Positions 11,301-59,720 of a DNA stretch of 64,000 nucleotides are shown here, in pieces. The stretch is from Eledone cirrhosa. Lineage: Eukaryota. The notes below the pieces were generated by a model. The model saw nothing but the letters and a program-made list of their open reading frames with translations, ran no database searches and was not told where the DNA came from. Location of the stretch: assembly GCA_964016885.1 (NCBI GenBank), contig OZ024741.1, positions 80,662,001-80,726,000 on the forward strand, written 5' to 3'. Numbering within the stretch: position 1 is the first letter of the stretch; each line of letters begins with the position of its first letter. The position numbers were made by a program, and so were the translations under genes.

Positions 11301-13789
11301 ACTGTCCAGGCTTGGGACATTCTTTAATCTGTTTTAAGACAAGATTAGAAGGGCAGTGCCCATGACTTTTTTCAGGGAGTCCAAGGCTGGCAGTAAAAAA
11401 GTATCTGGCATTCAGAAAACAAAGTACAATTCATGTGTTGGAGTTAATTCTTATAATGCATCCTAGATGCAACTAGAATATTTTAGAGGAAGAGATAAGA
11501 TTGACAAGGTGCAGATTGACAGTCTCTTAAACTCTAATTCAATTAAAAGTAAAATAATATGTATTTTACTATATAATGGATGACCAATTAATTTATAACA
11601 TTTATGTCCTGCTGCATTGCATATTCAATTAAAAATAAATTTATATTTGGTGCTCCATGAAGTTTTTCTCATGGAAGTTGTGGAATGTCCTTTCTGAAAA
11701 GTGTTTGCATTGCTGTTTATGTCACAAGATTTATGAGAAAAGGAAAAAAAAAAAGAATAACAGGAATATTTAATAAAACCAATTACATTTCAGATTTAAT
11801 TAAATCTAAGTTACACATTAAAAGAATAAAACTAGAAATGTCAGCATGTATCATTGATGAAAACCTGAGATAATGAATGATACTTCGATTTATAATCAGA
11901 ATGGAATTAATTATTTTTTAATATTATTTTATATCTGAGATGGGCCTGTATGTCTAGCATTTTCAATCCTTAGACTGAACGTCGGTGGTAATATTCAGTT
12001 TCTTGTATAAGCATGCTAACTACAAACTTACTGTTTTACTCAAACTAAACAGTATCAATGTGGGTAGATAAAAATTGCCCTTTCACTAATTTTCTGTTCA
12101 TAATCTTCATCTCAAGTCTTATCAATCTCCAGAATCAGATTAACCCTTTTGTTACCATATTTCTACTGTATTTGAATGAACTAATTACAAATTTGGTAGG
12201 ATTTATGAAAATTATTATTTCAATTTTAAGATGGTATTTGTAACATAACAAAAGGTTCTTATATAAAATTAGGTTGGAAAACTTTAAATAGGTAGTTTTT
12301 CCCCATTGAACCAAAAGTAGTCAGGTGGGTTGGTATCAATACAGTTAATTAATTTCTAAATTAATTTAAAGAAACCATTTATTTAATTTACACATTTATT
12401 TTCAAATTTTCAAATTCCTAAGCTTTGTTAACCAAACAGCATCCAAATTAAATTTAGCAAAGTAATTAAATTGGTTAAATGTCATTAAAATGATTCTTCC
12501 ACAGAATTAATATATTATCAGTACATTAGTGGTTAGGGTGTTGGGCTCATGATCATAAGGTCATGGTTTCAATTCTGGGATCAGACAGTGTGGAGTATTC
12601 TTTAGCAAAATGCTTCATTTCACATTGCTTTCATAAATATCTACCTGTACTCTCAGGCATTGCTCCTGCACTCTTCTGTAGAGAGCATCACACAGGTTGA
12701 TAACTATGATCTCAATTGACCCAAGTCATCCACTCCATGACATAGCTAAGGATTCTCAGCTACTAGACCAACATTGCTTGTCATCACGCTGTCCTTTCTT
12801 TCATAACGCAGCAAAGCTGTGAAACTCAAATTTTAACATGCTTCAGACATGGAGAGATAGCTGGTAACAGACATCTTGATTGGCCCAATTGAATGTCAGC
12901 CCCAGTACAGACCGTCTACCAGGTGCTAACTTCTCTTGGAGGGAGTGGGTGTTCCTGAATTCGTTACACACAGGTATCAGCTGATTCAATGCAGCCATGC
13001 ACCAATGGGGGCTGCAGCCATCAGCAGCTTTCCAGTGTGGTTCTTTAGAGCAGGTTGCCTTAGAGTGAGTGCCTGGATCTCCACCCATCTGAGAGTGTGG
13101 ACTTCACACACCCTAACCCCACTACTATGAACTGGTTGCAGTGCCTGGGGATGTCGCATGATTACTCTCTCATACTCTTACAAAAGAAATATAATTTTAC
13201 TGTGGTGCTTATTAAAACACCTGAGAAACCTCCTATGAGGTGCTACCTCATAAGAGGCCAGCTAAACCTGCATTGGTATGAGCTGTATATTTTTCATTTC
13301 ATCAGTACATTGGCTTAAACTTTACATGAATAAACTATTTTTAAACTTTGAAATTAATAAGCTCTATTGTAAGCAACTTTTTAGAATTACAGAGGGCTCA
13401 TCAGCCACACCAAATATATGATAACCTCTAGGATAAAATGCATCCAGTAGACTGTAAAGTGGTTGATGTTGAGATGGGCATTCAACCATAGAAACCCTGC
13501 CAAAAATGGAACATATTTAGTGAGACATGGTCTTTCACCCATATAGGAGGACAGTAGCTCCAATTAAGTACTGACCTAGTCTGTAATGAAGTGCATTACC
13601 CATGCCAACATGGAAATGGATGGATATAATGTGATGAAGATGATGATTTGTCATTTGATATGTTTTTAAATCACTCCTTGTGTTCCCCCTTCATTTATGT
13701 ATTTTACTCTTTTACCTGTTCCAGCCATCCGGCTGAGGCCATGCTGAATATTTTCTGTTCAGTTTTATTCCTAGTGTTGCAATGAGGTA

Positions 13790-15110
13790 ATGCTGGTGCC
13801 ATGATAAAACAACCAGCCCACTCTGTAAAGTGGTAGTGTTGGTGCCATGATAAAACACACCCAGCCCATTCTGTAAAGTGGTAGTGTTGGTGGCATGATA
13901 AAACAAATCGAGCTCACTCTGTAAAGTGGTAGTGTTGGTGCCATGATAAAACACACCCAGCCCATTCTGTAAAGTGGTAGTGTTGGTGGCATGATAAAAC
14001 AAATCGAGCTCACTCTGTAAAGTGGTAGTGTTGGTGCCATGATAAAACACACCCAACTCACTCTGTAAAGTAGTAGTGTTGGTGCCATGATAAAACACAC
14101 CCAGCTCACTCTGTAAAGTGGTAGTGTTGGTGCCATGATAAAACAACCAGCTCACTCTGTAAAGTGGTAGTGTTGGTGCCATGATAAAACAACCAGCTGA
14201 CTCTGTAAAGTGGTAGTGTTGGTGCCATGATGAAATAACAAGCTCACTCTGTAAAGTGGTAGTGTTGGTGCCATGATAAAACAACCAGCTCACCCTGTAA
14301 AGTGGTAGTGTTGGTGCCATGATAAAATAACAAGCTCACTCTGTAAAGTGGTAGTGTTGGTGCCATGATAAAACAACCAGCTCACTCTGTAAAGTGGTAG
14401 TGTTGGTGCCATGATAAAATAACAAGCTCACTCTGTAAAGTGGTAGTATTGGTGCCATGATAAAACAACCAGCTCACTCTGTAAAGTGGTAGTGTTGGTG
14501 CCATGATAAAATAACAAGCTCACTCTGTAAAGTGGTAGTGTTGGTGCCATGATAAAACAACAAGTTCACTCTGTAAAGTGGTAGTGTTGGTGCCATGATA
14601 AAACAACCAGCTCACTCTGTAAAGTGGTAGTGTTGGTGCCATGATAAAACAACCAGCTCACTCTGTAAAGTGGTAGTGTTGGTGCCATGATAAAACAACA
14701 AGCTCACTCTGTAAAGTGGTAGTGTTGGTGCCATGATAAAACAACCAGCTCACTCTGTAAATTGGTAGTGGTGGTGCCATGATAAAACAACTAGCTCACT
14801 CTGTAAAGTGGTAGTGTTGGTGCCATGATAAAACAACCAGCTCACTCTGTAAAGTGGTAGTGTTGGTGCCATGATAAAACAACAAGCTCACTCTGTAAAG
14901 TGGTAGTGTTGGTGCCATGATAAAACAACCAGCTCACTCTGTAAATTGGTAGTGTTGGTGCCATGATAAAACAACCAGCTCACTCTGTAAAGTGGTAGTG
15001 TTGGTGCCATGATAAAACAACCAGCTCACTCTGTAAAGTGGTAGTGTTGGTGCCATGATAAAATAACAAGCTGACTCTGTAAAGTGGTAGTGTTGGTGCC
15101 ATGATAAAAC
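13790..15110. repeat. Minisatellite, 46-47-bp unit, ~28 copies, derived from a dispersed SINE-like repeat core
   Basis: Unit GTGTTGGTGCCATGATAAAACAACCAGCTCACTCTGTAAAGTGGTA. The same motif occurs singly in dispersed repeats (e.g. 45810-45860, 41190-41240). Confidence 0.97.
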
Positions 15111-22922: not shown

Positions 22923-24869
22923 ATTCTTGACAAAATTGTGAAATCTCTTTTTCAAAAATCATTTGATTGAACATTTCAAAGATTTTAACCACTCTATCTT
23001 ATATTGATTTTCTTACTTAAGAGACAAGGTTAATTTTCAAATTCTGAACTCTGGACAAAGATGAAACAAAACCCTGAAAGACATTTATTTTGACATTCTA
23101 CCAGTCCTGCCATCTTACTGTCATTTATCACAGCTAATATTAAAGCTAATCTCTCTCCTGAAACTCAATATAAATATTTTCAAATTTCTTGTATTTCAAT
23201 CACAAACAACCTAATTAATTACACTGTCTTCACTCAATAAACCTCAACCTAATAAATCTCTTCTAGGCAATAACCTTATCTAAAATAATTGTGTAATAAA
23301 ATTGGTAGCAGTTGCCAGACATCATTATCATCATTCTGTGTTGGCATTGGTTGGATGTGTTGTCACAGTCTGAGACTGGACACGTCAGGGCACAACATGT
23401 TACTTGTATATATAATCCATCATTGCCAGGGTTTCTGCAGCTCGATGCCCTTTCTAACACCAATCACTTTACAGAGTGTAATTGGTGCATTTTATTGTGG
23501 TACCAGTATTAGAGAGACTGTTTGTCCCTAGCTCCACTTTGTCTCAGTTCAATTGTCATCCTCTTTACAGAGTGTACTGAGTTCATTTAGTTGTGGAAGT
23601 AGTGCTAGTGAGTATGCCTTGAATTTTGCAAGGCTAAAAAGTACTCACTACCATGTCTCCATTGATTCAAAGCCATATGTTGAAAAAGGTAAATAGAATG
23701 AAAGAAGAAGGATTAGGATGGGTGTATGAGTATGATGGGAGGTGACAGAGAAAGAAGTAATGGGAGAAAGGCAGTGCTCAAGGGAGAAATATAAAGGTGA
23801 TGTTGGATTCAAATGATGTCTCTAATTTGAGAATATGTTTTTCTCTCTTTGTTACCAGTCTCAGAGACCTTAGGAATGGCTGTAAGCACTACCTAATGCT
23901 TCAGCATAGACTGATATGAATAAATAAAATTGTTGATACTGCAAGAGTGTCAGAGTCTGACAGATAGCAGGACTTATCTAGATAGAAAATGCAATTTACC
24001 TTATTTATTGTTTCAACTCTTCAGTTTCTCTTAGGTAACAAAACATTTCACACATTCCATCTTCATACCATTTCCAAGTTCCAGTTTTACATCTATAGCT
24101 CCCTCCATATACACTTCACACATAAATCTAGTTGTCTCATTATTTAATCATCCCTTCACACTACTACATTTTCAGTATACCCACCCAGCAAATATCTTAC
24201 ACTTAATGGAGTTCACTCCAACAAAAAGATATAGATGGGGATGATGGAAGAGAACATGAAAGTCAGGGGACTGGTGAGGGGATATTTTGGCAATATGGCA
24301 AAATGGAGAAGCTTGCCATAAGGCCCAGCAAGGCTAATCCTTGCTTTAGCAGGGGAAATAACTATAAAACATTTGTTGTTACTGTTGTTCCAACTCATGC
24401 AAGTATGGAAAAACAACCATGAAATTAATAAATGAAAAAAATATTTCTTAGCCATAATTCTAATGAATGACACTTAACTTTGATAGGTTTTGGCCAGTTT
24501 GGCCCAGGTCATGTCTAACTTAATAGCACCACCTGCCTCTGATTTTCAAATAATTTTGAAAATAATTAAGAATTTGAAATGATTTAATAATACAACTAAC
24601 CTTCTCATTATTAAGTTAGTGTTTGGAATATAAACTAAACATAAACTAACAGATTCTGACATAAAATTATGATGGGAGGTTTTTAGATAAATATAAGTAT
24701 TTTAAAATAAACAGCTTTGTATTATAGAACCAGGGGCAATTTCAGGTAGTTTGGTATCAAAAGGTTTAATAACAAAACAAGTTTATCTCACATCTATTTT
24801 TTAGTGTGTTTAGATTTGAAATTCTTTATCATAAGAGGAAAAAAAATATCTATATCTATCTATCTATCT

Positions 24870-27800
24870 CAGGCTGGTGGCCGCATATGCCCCATCCGGG
24901 ACACCGCGGCCAGACTTCTTCAAACGTCTAGAGACTTTTCTGGGAACGTCCCGCTCCTTGCTTTTAGTGGGGGACTGGAATGGAATCCTAGATGCACGTT
25001 GGGACTATGTGGGAGCATGTCCCGATAAAGGGGGGTGTAACAGCCTCAAACAGTTAATCGACCGATTTGACCTGGCCGATAGATATCGACTAGATTTTCC
25101 GACTGCGCCACTGTGGACGTGGAGTAATCGTAGCGGAACATCTAGATCGTACCTAGATAGGGTTCCAGTTAGAAATAAGGATAGGGACATGTTAAGCTGT
25201 CCACAAATGTTCATGGTTGCCTATTCAGATCACAAACTAGTGACCTGCATGGCCAACCTTGATAGAACCCATAGACAAGGACCCGGCTACTGGAAGCTGA
25301 ACTTGTCGTTACCGACAAGCAAAGCCTACAGTAGACGGATTAGCACTTTAGTTAAACAGCACTTGACAGGGGCCATTGTCAACAACAGATGGTGGTACTC
25401 TCTCAAGAGGGCAGTTAGATTAGACTCGATAGTTTTTAGTAAAGAATTAGCGTTAGATAGAAATAGAACCGAGAAGGAACTGGTAGATAAAGTAGAAGAG
25501 GCTATTAGAAGTGGCAACGTAGCCAGCGTGCTAGCAACGAGAACGGCCTTGGACCAGTTCTTCGACGCAAAGCACGAGGGCTGCGTTGTCAGAAGCAAAA
25601 TACGTGCTCTGGGAAACGAGGGAGCCAAAGCTGTTAGCTGGGCCCGAGTGACGGAGGCAAAAAGTGGCAACAAGTCCACGATTCGGTCTTTGAAGGACCA
25701 AAACGGACGCGTGATACGTGAGCCGAAGCAGATGTGTGCGGCTTTTCAGCGGCACTTTGCTCGGCTGTTCGGGGGGAGCGGCGCGCCGGGAGAGGCTATG
25801 GATTTCGGTCCATACCTCGACGGCCTACCGCGACTCTCGGACAGCGAGGCGAAGTTCTGCGAAAAGCCGATTTCAGCCACTGAGATAGGGGACGCGCTGA
25901 GCCAATGCGGCAAACGCAAATCTCCAGGTCTCGACGGTCTACCCTACGAATTTTACGTAGCAATGCCGGACTTATTCTCCGGTCTCCTGGAAGCGGTCTA
26001 CTGCAACTGGCAACAGAACGGGAGAATTCCCAATTCTGTAACCGGGGGCGTGGTCACACTAATCAGGAAGGACGAGAATAAGGGGGATGACATAGGCAAC
26101 TTCCGGCCCATAACTCTGCTAAACACAGAGTTACAGATTTTGGCCAAGGTGTTGGCAAAGAGGCTGGCGCTTGTCGTCGAGAACCTGGTGGGAGAAGCGC
26201 AGACATGCGCGATCCCGACCAGGTCCATACACGACAACCTCCACCTCATGCGATACATCATAGAGAGGGTAGGGTGTAAACCCGGCTTCGGTGGGGCCCT
26301 GATCAACTTGGATCAGTCTAAGGCTTTCGATAGGGTTGACCATCGTTACCTGGATGCGGTGCTCGAGGCGGCAGGCTTCGGACCCGTGTTCAGGGGCTGG
26401 ATTGCTGCAATGCACAACAGCAACATCTGCTCAAGGGTCAAGGTGAACGGTTACCTCTCGGAGCCGTTCCATATTACGCGATCCATTCGACAGGGATGCC
26501 CTCTCTCCTCCCTTCTGTACGTACTGACTCTCGAACCACTACTGCGGAAGCTGGAGCTATTGCAGGGCATCCCTCTGGAACCGGGACTGCGGAAAGCGGC
26601 GTCGGCCTACGCCGACGACGTGACAGTAATGGTGTCGAGCGCCTCGCAAATCGAGAAAGTCGGCACCTTACTAAAGGAATACGAAAGTCTCACAGGAGCG
26701 AAGCTGAACCGGGACAAGTCCATCGGTTTGCAACTCGGATCGTGGAGAGGCAGACCGATGCCTTCCGATGACGTCGTCGGACGCTGGACGGAAGGACCGG
26801 TAAAGCTGCTCGGGGTCTGGTTTGGTCCGGACCTCCAGGTGGAGAAGAACTGGAACGAAGTGACGGCCAAGGTGTTTGCACTCACCCAGAAGTGGGCCGA
26901 GTGCAAACTATCCTTGAAAGGTCGAGCGGAGGTGGCGAACACTTTTATAGCGTCCGCCATCTACTACCGCTTGACCGTCGTGCCTTGTCCAGCCAAAACG
27001 CTCGCCAAAATGGAGCGCGCCCTCTTCCGATTCCTTTGGAAGAGGCGGGCTCCTTTGGTAAGAAGATCCATCTGCTGCCAACACCCTTCTAACGGAGGGC
27101 TGGGGATGCCGTGGTTGACGATGCGCAAACACGCGCTCAGGCTGCGGCATCTCTACGTATTCCTCACCGGACAACCGGTGTGGGCCCCGTTTGTGAGGCG
27201 AGCCTTCCCACGACTCGTCTCACTGACCGAGCTACAGTCCTGGGTCAAGCAGAGACCGAGGAAAATGGGCGACTGGCACATCGAATGTGCTCAGGCGCTC
27301 ACAGCCCTCTGGCAGGCGGACCCGGCGATCAGTGGAGACTCCACTTCGTCATTCTATAGAGGGTTGGTCCGCAGCAAGTGCGACGACGCGCTCGGTGAAA
27401 CTCTAGGCGTGGAGGAAGATGAACTGGCCAGTCTGTTCGGTAGGACCTTCCGCCCGGGACCGATGGACAACTTCCAAAAGTCCCTGGCCTGGCAGTGCTA
27501 CCGAGGAGCTCTACCAGTTCGAGACAAGCTCTACAGACATGGGCGCCCGGGCAGGGACCCTGCAAAAAAGATCTGTCCGAGGTGCGTGCGAGACGAAGAA
27601 ACCGTCGCGCACGCATTCATACACTGCCCGGGCGTCACTGACCTGTGGGGATATGTAGAACGACTATTGTCGCGGGTGGGACCAATCCAGTTGACCACCG
27701 AGTCCATTGTCATGATCAAACCGCCACCCTCCTTCAAAAACGAAGGAGAGGCGGTTTTCCTTTGTGTGATAGCTATGGCGAAAGAGGTTGTATGGTGGAC

Positions 27801-28227
27801 AAGGTTGAAAGGGCTGAGGTCAGACACCTTTCTCTCCGGCCAACAACTGATTCTTTTTTTCAAATACCACTTTGGAAGAAGAATCAGGATGGAGAGAGAG
27901 GTGCTGTACCGCAGCAAGTTTTATGAAAGGTGGGTGAAAGTGGCGAGAATGGCCCGAGTGAATGGGCCTTCTCTCTATATCAGCCTGTAGGTTGAGGAAA
28001 AGGAGGAGGAGAGGAAAGGAGTACAAGCTCTTCGTACTCCTGGAGATGAGGGTTGCACATTTTTTCGGGGGTATGTGTTACCCATATAAACTGTCTCCCT
28101 CTATTGGGGAAAATCGACTAACTTTTAAATTCCATCTGTGATAACATTTTACACGTTTTTATTGTATGTAAACTTCCCCCTTTGTATTTGTCCCCTTCTT
28201 TTGTGCCCCTGTGGCTAATAAAGAAAT
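24870..28227 (+). mobile_element. Young 5'-truncated Tx1/L1-clade non-LTR retrotransposon
   Basis: GC- and CpG-rich block in an AT-rich background. It begins inside the endonuclease domain (RLVAAYAP), has a ~240-bp 3' UTR with a T-rich tract and AATAAA, and is flanked by TATC/TA microsatellite on both sides. Confidence 0.93.
24877..27990 (+). CDS. Tx1/L1-type ORF2: partial APE endonuclease, reverse transcriptase and C-terminal CCHC zinc finger
   Basis: 1037-aa open frame. EN motifs GDWN, SYLDR, SDH, WKLN. RT motifs KSPGLDGLPYEFY, FRPITLLN, LDQSKAFDRVDH, RQGCPLS and YADD (26608-26619). Zinc finger CPRC-x8-H-x4-C. The N-terminus is truncated, so the GTG is not a true start. Confidence 0.95.
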   Translation: MAAYAPSGTPRPDFFKRLETFLGTSRSLLLVGDWNGILDARWDYVGACPDKGGCNSLKQLIDRFDLADRYRLDFPTAPLWTWSNRSGTSRSYLDRVPVRNKDRDMLSCPQMFMVAYSDHKLVTCMANLDRTHRQGPGYWKLNLSLPTSKAYSRRISTLVKQHLTGAIVNNRWWYSLKRAVRLDSIVFSKELALDRNRTEKELVDKVEEAIRSGNVASVLATRTALDQFFDAKHEGCVVRSKIRALGNEGAKAVSWARVTEAKSGNKSTIRSLKDQNGRVIREPKQMCAAFQRHFARLFGGSGAPGEAMDFGPYLDGLPRLSDSEAKFCEKPISATEIGDALSQCGKRKSPGLDGLPYEFYVAMPDLFSGLLEAVYCNWQQNGRIPNSVTGGVVTLIRKDENKGDDIGNFRPITLLNTELQILAKVLAKRLALVVENLVGEAQTCAIPTRSIHDNLHLMRYIIERVGCKPGFGGALINLDQSKAFDRVDHRYLDAVLEAAGFGPVFRGWIAAMHNSNICSRVKVNGYLSEPFHITRSIRQGCPLSSLLYVLTLEPLLRKLELLQGIPLEPGLRKAASAYADDVTVMVSSASQIEKVGTLLKEYESLTGAKLNRDKSIGLQLGSWRGRPMPSDDVVGRWTEGPVKLLGVWFGPDLQVEKNWNEVTAKVFALTQKWAECKLSLKGRAEVANTFIASAIYYRLTVVPCPAKTLAKMERALFRFLWKRRAPLVRRSICCQHPSNGGLGMPWLTMRKHALRLRHLYVFLTGQPVWAPFVRRAFPRLVSLTELQSWVKQRPRKMGDWHIECAQALTALWQADPAISGDSTSSFYRGLVRSKCDDALGETLGVEEDELASLFGRTFRPGPMDNFQKSLAWQCYRGALPVRDKLYRHGRPGRDPAKKICPRCVRDEETVAHAFIHCPGVTDLWGYVERLLSRVGPIQLTTESIVMIKPPPSFKNEGEAVFLCVIAMAKEVVWWTRLKGLRSDTFLSGQQLILFFKYHFGRRIRMEREVLYRSKFYERWVKVARMARVNGPSLYISL

Positions 28228-55800: not shown

Positions 55801-56242
55801 TACAATGTAACTGGCTTTACTGAGGTACATACTATAAACTGTCTTTACTAAGTATAGGGGTGGGGAAGAGGCAAAAAATGATATCTGTATCTGTTGGTTT
55901 ATTAACAAGAAAGGAACAATTGTATTTCACTATTTTGTAAAGTAACTAAGCTGTGTTAGTTTAGTTTACACAGTAACTAAGCTGAGTTAATTTAACTTAT
56001 TGGAGTTCACTATTTTCTAAGCTGAGTTAATTTAAGTTAATTTACAGGGGAGAAAGAGAGAAATAACTTACTTCAGTGGTGTTCCAGTTGGTTGGTATGC
56101 CTACAAGGGAAGAGTAAATAAATATTCATGGTGTTGAAATTATTTGCATAGTTTATACGTTAGGAGAGATGATGTTGTTGAGCATGCTGTAATATGTGTG
56201 TGTGTGTGTGTGTGTGTGTGTCTGTGTATATATATATATATA

Positions 56243-57136
56243 ACTGATTAGTTAGCACCCCAAACACTAAATTGGGAATATACTTAGGTATATCCTAATG
56301 TTTGTTGAGTGAGATGGTGTTGGTCAGAGTATTGCTTAAGGCTTTCTCTGTTAATGTATTAAATATATACTCTTGATAGCCAGATATGATTTCCAGATAT
56401 AAGGTACGACTCTCTTTATTATTATTATTTTTTATATGAAATACTGATTGATCTTCCTTGTATCCCATGTCTGATTTAGCCTTAGAGAATAACTATGTGT
56501 GTATATGGGTGATCCATACATGTCTTTATTATGTTTTAATATCTCTATGTGTGCATTGATTGTGTATACATATAGTTATTCTTTTAATATCCAATTGAGT
56601 TCTTAAACACGTGGTTAGAATACCTAACAGGTTTAAATGACCAGCGTGTATATTCTTTTATATTTTAAGATGACCTCCCCTTACCCCCTTGGGGGCAGCG
56701 TGTATTTTACCTTTGAGTGGACTGCTGGATTTTCGAATCTACCAGTCTCTTTTTAGCGCTGAAGGAGACCATCACTAATCTATTAATGTCGATGTAATTC
56801 TTATATCGATATTATTTGGGCGTCCACTGATGAGTTTATAAGAGCCCGCTTGTGTATAAAAGTATGGATTATATACAAGTTTCTACATAACCTGGAAATT
56901 ATTTATCCCAAATTGTAGAAATCTTATAACGAAACGGCCGTCTGGAAGGAAAGAGATATTTATTTAATTATGTCTCATATAAAATAATACAACCAGCTAT
57001 CCACGAAATACTGATTAGTTAGCACCCCAAACACTAAATTGGGAATATACTTAGGTATATCCTAATGTTTGTTGAGTGAGATGGAGTTGGTCAGAGTATC
57101 GCTTAAGGCTTTCTCTGTTAATGTATTAAATATATA
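56243..57136 (+). mobile_element. Retrozyme-/Penelope-pLTR-like non-coding element: 767-nt unit plus a 127-nt terminal direct repeat
   Basis: Direct repeats at 56243-56369 and 57010-57136 (2 mismatches); (TA)n on both flanks; internal hammerhead; no ORF in the track. Confidence 0.75.
56823..56946 (+). ncRNA. Type I hammerhead ribozyme with an expanded, branched stem II
   Basis: Stem I TCCA/TGGA; CTGATGA at 56827-56833; stem II GTTTATAAGA/TCTTATAAC (one bulged T) enclosing two hairpins; GAAA at 56931-56934; palindromic stem III ACGGCCGT; GUC cleavage triplet at 56940-56942. Confidence 0.8.
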
Positions 57137-57327
57137 TATATATATATATATATATCATATAAAAATGACTTCTACAGGATTAGAATTGTTTTATTTGTTT
57201 GAAATTGATGAACAGTTTTAGTTATGTGGAAGTCATTTCTATATGAAATAAATAAATCTTTATCTTCTCTACTAATGTATTGAATACCTTATTTAACCGT
57301 GGTTCCCTTCTGCTGGAGAACCATTCT

Positions 57328-57439: not shown

Positions 57440-57620
57440 CATGTACATTTTTGATCTCCCATCCCTTGTGTGCTAAAATTGTATTACTACATCTTTTATC
57501 TCCCACTCTTTGTGTGCCGAAGTTCTACTGGTATGTCTTTTATATCCCACCCTATGTGTGCTAAAAATGTACTGGTGCATCTTTTATTTACCATCTCTTG
57601 TGTGCCAAAGATGTACATTT
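57440..57620. repeat. Degenerate ~42-bp tandem repeat, ~4 copies
   Basis: CATCTTTTATCTCCCA..C.TTGTGTGC(T/C)AAA recurs. Confidence 0.6.
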
Positions 57621-58080: not shown

Positions 58081-58188
58081 TCGGACAACAAGGTTCGAGC
58101 TGAGGGGCTTCATCAAACACAACACAAGAATGCTTCATCATCGAAGTTGCAACAGTGTGTTGATCATCCATTAGCAGATACTACAGAT
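58081..58188 (+). CDS. Internal coding exon of an unidentified host gene (SDNKVRAEGLHQTQHKNASSSKLQQCVDHPLADTTD)
   Basis: Strong polypyrimidine acceptor TTTTTTCTTTTGTTTCTAG and donor GAT|GTAAGT. Length is 108 bp = 36 codons, open in phase 0, and it is not repeated elsewhere in the window. Confidence 0.7.
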
Positions 58189-58229: not shown

Positions 58230-58705
58230 ATAGCTAAAATTAGGATAGGATGAAAGTTTAGAGAGCTACTCCCACTGGTTACAACAAAAGGTTTCATCCT
58301 ATGTACAAAAGGATAATTGTATGTGAAGTGATGCCTGTGTGCGAAGTGTGATGCTGCATGGTAATGTGAACATGAGAGAAAGAAAGAGCTTGGACGAGCT
58401 GAGGGAGAAGCTGGGTTTAAGAGGAATCCGAGGTGGTGTGCAGGAGAGAAGACTGCATTGGTGATGTGCATGGACAATGACCACTGGGTGAAGAAGTGCC
58501 AAGAAATCCCAGTGAAAGGAAGCTGCAGTAGAGAAAGATCAAGGAAGACCTGTGCAGATGTAGTGAGAGTTGATCTCAATTCACTGAGACTCACAGAAGT
58601 GATGATGAAAGAATGTAGTGAGTGGAGAGATGCTGTGCTGAAGAGAACCTGTTCATCCCATGCAAACATGAAAAAATGAACATAAAAATGATGATGATGA
58701 TGCAT
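58230..58705 (+). mobile_element. Decayed RTE-type LINE 3' fragment
   Basis: Near-identical (inverted) to 29030-29350 over its 3' part, with a (GAT)n tail. Confidence 0.75.
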
Positions 58706-58769: not shown

Positions 58770-59720
58770 CTAAGTCATATCAAAGGAATTCATGACTGAA
58801 GGCCCATGGTAACTTCCATATGTTATTGACCCAGTACTTATAGGTGAATGTGGAAGAGCTTGAGAAAAAAATTCCTGAAGTGGAAACAAATTAGAATCAA
58901 AAGGACTGAGAGTAAACTTAGCAAAGACCAAAGTTTTAGTAAGTAGGGAAGAAGACAAGATTCTGATCTCATTGGGAAAGTGACCATGCTGTATATGTAG
59001 AAAAGAAGTAGGTAGGAACACTATATGATGTACTCAATGTAAGGTATGGGTACACAAGAGGTGTAGTGGGATTGTAGGCAGACTAACAGAAAATATAGTC
59101 TTTGTCTGTGGCAGATACACAGGTATAGTGTGTAGGAGGAGCAGTGAAATAAACATTTTCTAATATTAGGAAGGTACCATAGAAGTAGTTGATTGTTTCT
59201 GTTACTTAGGTGACTTAATTACCAGTGGAGGGGGTTGATGGAAAAAGGATTTTGAGTTATCTCTATTGAAAACAAAGAGATTTTCTCTACAGTAGATTGT
59301 ATGATGTCTGCATTAAAAGTGAGATGTTGCATAGCAGTAAATGCAGAGGATATGCAGAGATTGGAGAGAAATGAAGTAAACATGCTCTGCTGGATGAGCA
59401 ATGTTGGTGTGCATGAACAATGGAACATGGATGAACTGAGAGAAATGTTGGATATAAGAGGAATCAGATGTAATCTTCAAGAGAGAAGACTGCACTAGTT
59501 TGGTCATGTGATGCATATTGATAAGGAACGCTGGATGAAGAAGTTCTAGGAATTGCCAGTGGAAGAAAACTGCAGTAGGGGAGACCAAAAAAAAAACAAA
59601 AAAACTGATCACAAACTGAATCTCAAAGAGATGATGAAGGAATGCAGCAATTGAAAGGAGGTTGTGATGAGAGAGACTGGTCTGGCCCATGCAAGAAAAG
59701 CGAGTGTAAAATGATGATTA
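58770..59720 (+). mobile_element. Decayed RTE-type LINE fragment (RT end, Cys-rich insert, C-terminus)
   Basis: Translations LESKGLRVNLAKTKVLV; PCCICRKEVGRNTI*CTQCKVWVHKRCSG; EVVDCFCYLGD; MQRLERNEVNMLCWM...LQERRLH*FGHV. Confidence 0.8.

Follow-up and report, generated by a model that had tools for sequence, protein, structure and literature searches.

A hammerhead motif with a branched domain in place of loop II in a non-coding, Penelope-like repeat of Eledone cirrhosa

The window, a 64,000-nt stretch of the Eledone cirrhosa genome (contig OZ024741.1, positions 80,662,001 to 80,726,000, forward strand), contains a type I hammerhead motif in which a three-way-junction domain replaces loop II; this much is confirmed. 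The motif is real and under selection; it appears to add a structural variant to a known ribozyme, and the mobile element that carries it is of a known type. We consider it reasonably probable that this non-coding unit of 679–767 nt is copied by the reverse transcriptase (RT) and GIY-YIG endonuclease of a Penelope-like element (PLE), and that its hammerhead cuts after C56942, probably as a dimer joined through a palindrome.

The hammerhead and its carrier repeat

The canonical core named in the initial annotation, in type I order (CUGANGA, GAAA, NUH), is present and was mapped base by base (Table 1). The ~78 nt said to stand in place of loop II with two hairpins occupy 56844–56921 and consist of the junction GCCCG and hairpins IIa and IIb, and stem III is self-complementary as described (ACGGCCGT). 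The hairpin noticed beyond stem I is retained, with changes, in all subfamilies of the repeat. A further distal pairing had been proposed between TATTATTT (56810–56817) and AAATAATA (56982–56989); both strands exist, but the helix between them is weak (probability ~0.3, two-sided changes in 0 of 8 pairs), and part of its 3′ strand can alternatively pair with the last bases of the element in all five subfamily majorities. A descriptor that allows a long domain II (up to 220 nt) has a single hit in the window and no hit in any of 300 shuffled sequences. Rfam at its gathering threshold gives no match in the window; in E-value mode Hammerhead_1 (RF00163) aligns to 56821–56948 with 26.6 bits (E 0.00048; the gathering score is 34), leaving 93 nt unaligned. 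The hammerhead core descriptor in PMC8557442 permits a spacer of 7–17 nt, and the expectation that standard searches would miss such a motif is thus borne out.

Table 1. Features of the insertion and of its hammerhead (positions in the window)
Feature	Position	Strand	Remarks
(TG)n(TA)n microsatellite, 5′ flank	56195–56242	.	
Whole insertion	56243–57136	+	1.17 units of a non-coding 767-nt repeat, 5′-truncated, one hammerhead
5′ partial repeat, 127 nt	56243–56369	+	98% identical to 57010–57136, 767 nt apart
Unit spacer	56370–56809	+	least conserved part
Equivalent of the second stop of long copies	56760–56792	+	151–183 nt before the cut; putative transcription start
GGGC, 5′ strand of candidate pseudoknot	56818–56821	+	partner GCCC 56844–56847
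Stem I, 4 bp	TCCA 56823–56826 / TGGA 56943–56946	+	U-A to C-G in subfamily B
Core CUGAUGA	56827–56833	+	sequence mapping, Rfam match
G10.1 paired with C11.1	56834 / 56930	+	sequence mapping
Domain II, 97 nt	56834–56930	+	stem II, 5-nt junction, hairpins IIa and IIb forming a three-way junction
Stem II, 8 bp	56836–56843 / 56922–56929	+	U56835 bulged
Hairpin IIa, 11 bp	56849–56859 / 56869–56879	+	two-sided change in 4 of 11 pairs
Hairpin IIb	56880–56887 / 56914–56921	+	7 invariant pairs; 26-nt loop with nearly invariant TAACYTGG
GAAA	56931–56934	+	
Stem III palindrome ACGGCCGT	56934–56941	+	
C17	56942	+	
Predicted cut	between 56942 and 56943	+	5′ ends of copies agree with it
Hairpin 3′ of stem I, 7 bp	56953–56959 / 56970–56976	+	
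Structured tail	56986–57127	+	ends at the fixed 3′ end; putative RT binding/start site, role from PMC11167929
(TA)n target, 3′ flank	57130–57155	.	

A first look at the 3.0-Gb genome gave 1811 candidates for the hammerhead region, which are not copy numbers, and 40 that were scored match at 98–100%. The repeat was observed at about 200 genomic places and likely occurs at thousands. Neither this mobile repeat nor its structured tail and candidate pseudoknot figure in the initial annotation. At 30 of 30 loci the 3′ end falls at or close to unit position 122–127 (one shorter, one longer) and the 5′ end is scattered, and long copies cross head to tail from one unit into the next. Among 173 distinct tail ends, 117 adjoin (TA)4 or longer, 40 enter another unit, and 16 do otherwise (11 adjoin shorter or different repeats and five neither). 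The unit has a GC content of 33–34%, and the longest stop-free frame in the window insertion is 65 aa. Target-site duplications were not seen by eye at the inspected loci, where microsatellite flanks would mask one. Partial tandems, such a tail, and (TA)n targets are features of PLEs (PMC8557442, PMC11167929), so the fixed 3′ end, 5′ truncation, partial tandem, and (TA)n flanks together make up the PLE pattern, here without a gene. It is very improbable that the copies are mere 3′ ends (pseudo-LTRs) of 5′-truncated coding PLEs. One coding family in this genome (family E) is such a case, with an endonuclease frame ~875 nt upstream of a hammerhead that has a 92–93-nt domain II, but all 27 of the 27 insertions that are long enough continue into a previous unit and not into a coding frame, and no frame in the unit exceeds 70 aa.

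Several other features were observed in the window. An open 1051-aa frame of a non-LTR retrotransposon (RVT_1, zf-RVT) lies at 24835–27990 on the plus strand and a 207-aa frame made of short tandem repeats at 13712–14335 on the minus strand. A 53-nt inverted repeat (77%; 57138–57263) lies immediately past the (TA)n of the element, followed by 44-nt tandem repeats (57443–57616) and by two repeat copies ~75% alike and 1.04 kb apart (58386–58641 and 59423–59670). On the plus strand, 108 nt between AG and GT with one open frame (58081–58188) form a candidate exon, in which case the hammerhead would sit in an intron in sense orientation. Elsewhere in the genome one insertion is repeated with identical flanks at distances of ~100–130 kb on a single contig, as part of larger segmental repeats (L006–L011; L234, L237–L241, and L244).

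Conservation, folding and a candidate pseudoknot

Four subfamilies, A–D, have units of 679–767 nt (B 679–697 nt, C 701, and D 723); B, C, and D were reached via the flanking sequence of copies. Clustering of 159 near-full sequences gives groups of 73, 39, 27, 16, and 2 with two singletons, and contigs from runs X1–X3 (one sample) cover each of the 30 bins and bear out the subfamily variants. Identity among A, B, and D is 70–77% in domain II and 79–80% in the tail, and 48–63% in the spacer. The catalytic bases and the palindrome are retained in all subfamilies, the latter in three forms (ACGGCCGT, ACGATCGT, and ACGAGTCGT), and CTGATGAG is present in 49 of 58 A copies. An extra unpaired base follows G10.1 in A and is lacking in B–D; position 10.1-11.1 is U-U in B and D, a combination reported as tolerated (PMC3088659). 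Individual copies differ by duplications, of 30 nt in hairpin IIa or 7 nt at stem II, or by 3 nt inserted into loop IIb (L061:1560–1625, L232, and L043).

In 18 copies picked by hand (six each of A, B, and C), pairing is kept in 92.8% of cells, compared with 35–49% for slid structures. The covariation across genomic copies for which the initial annotation had proposed a check takes the form of two-sided changes in 8 of 58 pairs, with core and stems kept: four are in hairpin IIa, two (of nine pairs) in stem II, and one each in stem I and the palindrome (of four pairs each). This number does not exceed that of shuffles (193 of 500), and the rows compared amount to about five related lineages. 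Folded alone, domain II takes the same three-way junction as its minimum-energy structure in four of the five subfamily majorities, and the fifth retains both hairpins; with the paired changes across subfamilies, this upholds the view of the motif as an expanded hammerhead variant. The comparisons support the reading that the four subfamilies maintain the fold through paired changes in stems I and II, hairpin IIa, and the stem III palindrome. An unbiased scan returned 186 helices, 19 of them with two-sided change, and ranked the tail helix 56992–56996/57087–57091 first; further covarying tail helices lie at 57038–57045/57059–57066 and 57092–57096/57113–57117, so that the tail is a structured domain in its own right.

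In the window, the hammerhead-competent fold differs from the predicted minimum-energy one and would cost 7–9 kcal/mol, the predicted pair probability of stem I there is 0.02, and a 201-nt region folds no better than shuffles (z −1.12). Over the sequences compared, the competent fold lies 5–12 kcal/mol above the minimum and a palindrome duplex contributes −9.6 to −14.1, for a net of −2.3 to +13.2 kcal/mol; the duplex energy thus roughly offsets the cost of the competent fold and does no more, which counts against the proposed cleavage.

The strands GGGC and GCCC are complementary and nearly invariant, being paired in 97% of cells with two-sided changes in 0 of 4 pairs. We lean, by a modest degree, toward a pseudoknot in which this pairing would hold stems I and II together. 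A 9-bp stem II next to a 4-bp stem I is, by our own reasoning, a poor geometric match for such a pseudoknot, and the same bases can instead form a nested hairpin that buries the core, so an off-switch role is possible. When the layout is scored as the first unpaired strand past stem II pairing with the strand immediately 5′ of stem I, it recurs with different sequences in a 49-nt (L300) and a 50-nt (L152) domain II, for which equally good shuffles number 7 and 42 per 1000, and it is absent in six of the eight other hammerhead types examined. About 40% of hammerheads are reported with such a pseudoknot (PMC3088659). Like those described by Perreault et al. (2011, PMC3088659), the present one would be a pairing of 4–5 bp in which an unpaired part of domain II meets the strand on the 5′ side of stem I; unlike them, its partner is a junction strand on an 8–9-bp stem II, it lies in a repeat with a dimer-type stem III, and within-family covariation is absent. 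A second candidate, between loop IIb (YTGG) and 56993–56996, was dropped, as the latter bases pair better inside the tail (three two-sided changes).

Traces at the predicted cut and the nature of the template

If the hammerhead cuts its RNA in the cell, some copies should begin at the cut. Tail-only queries starting 21–29 nt past the cut, which leave the upstream length free, were run for four families (30 loci each, less 4 query loci and 11 further occurrences of a single insertion). Between the cut and the query start (0 to 21–29 nt) lie the 5′ ends of 25 of 105 independent insertions, where the break rate upstream predicts 6.3 (p 1e-8); leaving out family D gives 13 of 76 and 5.0 expected (p 0.002). 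The pile-up is modest per family and strong in D only (12 of 29 in D; 4 of 21 in A, p 0.04; 5 of 27 in B and 4 of 28 in C, p 0.07). Weighting by TA-likeness in A, B, and D gives 4.3 expected against 21 observed. In four insertions (L248, L175, L185, and L338) the sequence begins with the base directly past the cut, with ~0.45 expected for two positions; the first T may derive from the TA target, so these starts are good to within one base. One insertion starts 3 nt before the predicted cut, and few 5′ ends lie inside the hammerhead itself. At the upstream cut, 9 of 21 long A copies stop 3–18 nt past it, in a hand-curated list with two positions adjusted and one event common to the tail set. 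In run X2 a joint in one contig resumes exactly at 56943, the first base after the predicted cut, as a single observation.

The junction pile-up is an indirect sign of cleavage in vivo, and it seems likely that the hammerhead cuts its own RNA in the cell. Were the motif instead kept as a folded protein-binding or promoter element that rarely cuts, with the 5′ ends produced by RT stalling at the folded core or by a local transcription start, the energetically unfavored competent fold and the scarcity of 5′ ends within the hammerhead would be accounted for, a stalled RT would give an identical trace, and the Anolis element does transpose in vitro without cleavage (PMC11167929). We nevertheless regard that explanation as quite unlikely: it does not predict four junctions at the exact cut base or the catalytic bases and palindrome kept throughout, and a separate upstream stop already explains a start site.

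This upstream stop bears on the form of the template. Of the 203 distinct 5′ junctions compared, 27 extend as far as the upstream cut, 10 ending 3–18 nt after it and 17 going past. Fifteen of the 17 halt within 190 nt, seven of them at 151–183 nt (six A and one B); in A, all 11 copies that pass the cut stop within 183 nt, six at 151–183. Two B insertions reach further upstream, one by 313 nt and the other as a 3-mer. The upstream core region (at least 114 nt before the upstream cut) is covered by only a minority, 10 of the 203 distinct insertions. Repeats within one copy are in most cases no more alike than the nearest other copy, a result compatible with either a circular or a linear template. 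A second stop 150–185 nt upstream favors linear, longer-than-unit templates over circles, and stops by 183–190 nt would be explained better by a 1.5-unit master whose start site precedes the first hammerhead than by a circle. The classical retrozyme cycle, in which monomers from cut to cut are ligated into 767-nt circles and reverse transcribed for more than one round, is unlikely as an account of these copies. The unit does close head to tail, one locus (L064) has about three units, two of them with 0 of 181 tail differences, other animal retrozymes are documented to form RNA circles (PMC7229834), and PLEs have been suggested to do so (PMC4209133); against this, a circle does not predict that 15 of the 17 copies past the upstream cut halt within 190 nt (p 6e-5 to 0.06, by assumed break rate).

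With linear templates, copies of ~1.5 units would be transcribed from a start ~150–185 nt before the first hammerhead. Two hammerheads, in the same transcript or in trans, would then join via the 8–9-nt palindrome and cut part of the RNAs; GGGC/GCCC would somewhat more probably form the pseudoknot at this step, and otherwise a competing hairpin that keeps the core off. The enzyme would bind the tail, nick (TA)n DNA, and begin copying ~190 nt past the cut site, as suggested by PMC11167929. Copying would end at a random break, at a cut end, or at the upstream stop, the pattern seen in the genome, and cut ends would give short copies of 175–195 nt, or of ~950 nt if only the upstream site is cut. 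With one intact hammerhead and no upstream start, the window copy would be expected to yield only short copies. A more far-reaching proposal is that the hammerheads form a distinct subclass, with a pseudoknotted three-way junction that takes the place of the loop I–loop II contact of dimer-acting PLE hammerheads and with efficient cutting in vivo, with junctions that record both the cut and the transcription start and with linear, partly cut, longer-than-unit RNAs that need no circle; we hold this as a tentative possibility, on balance doubtful.

Candidate enzyme partners and relation to known elements

The genome has 10,596 GIY-YIG candidates, of which 150 were scored, and frames with both RT and GIY-YIG are present; these have a CxxC linker and are Neptune-like by motif as in PMC8557442. 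A second endonuclease type has over 60,000 candidates, including one family with 150 of 150 identical matches. Hydra-like is a tentative label for this type. An autonomous element with the A–D hammerhead or tail was absent from 70 GIY-YIG loci and 30 loci of the second type, a small part of the more than 10,000 and 60,000 endonuclease candidates; the sole match was an unrelated B insertion (L166). The label of a Neptune-type partner was dropped, as the two endonuclease types are both abundant and the tail is found in neither.

Other hammerhead families have domain II lengths of ~11 to 116 nt, and among those folded A–D alone are branched. The domain II of family E (L201–L225), which looked branched by eye, folds as an unbranched rod and has no likeness to that of A (score 24, shuffles 28 ± 4.5). 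A very young coding PLE family (L306–L335) has many 821-aa frames, tandem and inverted pairs, and a hammerhead with a domain II of 36 nt. Further hammerheads were seen in L160 (minus strand, 6182; domain II 116 nt), L152 (6963 and 7422; 50 nt), and L300 (minus strand, 3968; 49 nt). In another PLE family (L121, L122, L124, L126, L128, L168, and L169) the 3′ end downstream of the frame has GAAA, a palindrome, and UA with no canonical CUGANGA nearby, and is possibly a degenerate or far-split hammerhead.

Type I hammerheads of PLEs have a short helix I, a long helix II, and a palindromic helix III (Cervera and De la Pena 2014, PMC4209133), and the present motif shares with these dimer hammerheads its 4-bp helix I, 8–9-bp helix II, palindromic helix III, and occurrence in dispersed families with compensatory changes. 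By this analogy, the palindromic stem III probably lets it act as a dimer. The published ones have a small loop II and an unpaired base between 9 and 10.1, whereas the present element has a 78-nt three-way junction and a base after G10.1 (A) or none (B–D), and it differs further in its candidate pseudoknot and its non-coding carrier unit. PLE hammerheads are reported to have low activity as dimers (PMC4209133), one of nine Xenopus dimers cut (bioRxiv 10.64898/2026.07.22.740005), and in Anolis no reads ended at the cut (PMC11167929); such poor cutting weighs against the cleavage proposed here.

Like non-LTR retrozymes (PMC7229834; bioRxiv 10.64898/2026.07.22.740005), the repeat is non-coding and low in GC, has one type I hammerhead per head-to-tail unit, and co-occurs with PLEs, and its units of 679–767 nt fall inside the 51–972 bp retrozyme range (bioRxiv 10.64898/2026.07.22.740005). 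Unlike them, it is longer than their 170–400-nt circles, is mostly present as less than one unit, and has a PLE-type hammerhead and junctions that favor linear templates. The same preprint reserves “active” for retrozymes in which two or more complete hammerheads follow one another; there is one in the window copy, and a minority of the family has two. With EN+ PLEs and their non-autonomous partners (PMC8557442, PMC11167929) it shares partial tandems, a fixed 3′ end downstream of the hammerhead, 5′ truncation, and (TA)n targets, and it is unlike them in lacking a coding frame and in having a ~190-nt tail with a covarying domain of its own.

A natural branched stem II of this kind was not found in the literature searched, and a prior description may exist. 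The domain indicates that a conserved, branched structure of 78 nt can be accommodated at loop II. The Rfam threshold and short-spacer descriptors miss such a domain, and hammerheads in animal repeats have therefore probably been undercounted. The role of the hammerhead in EN+ PLEs has been called unclear (PMC8557442). In this genome a trace of the predicted cut and a separate upstream stop are retained, and cleavage in vivo and the choice between linear and circular templates can therefore be addressed by junction counts.
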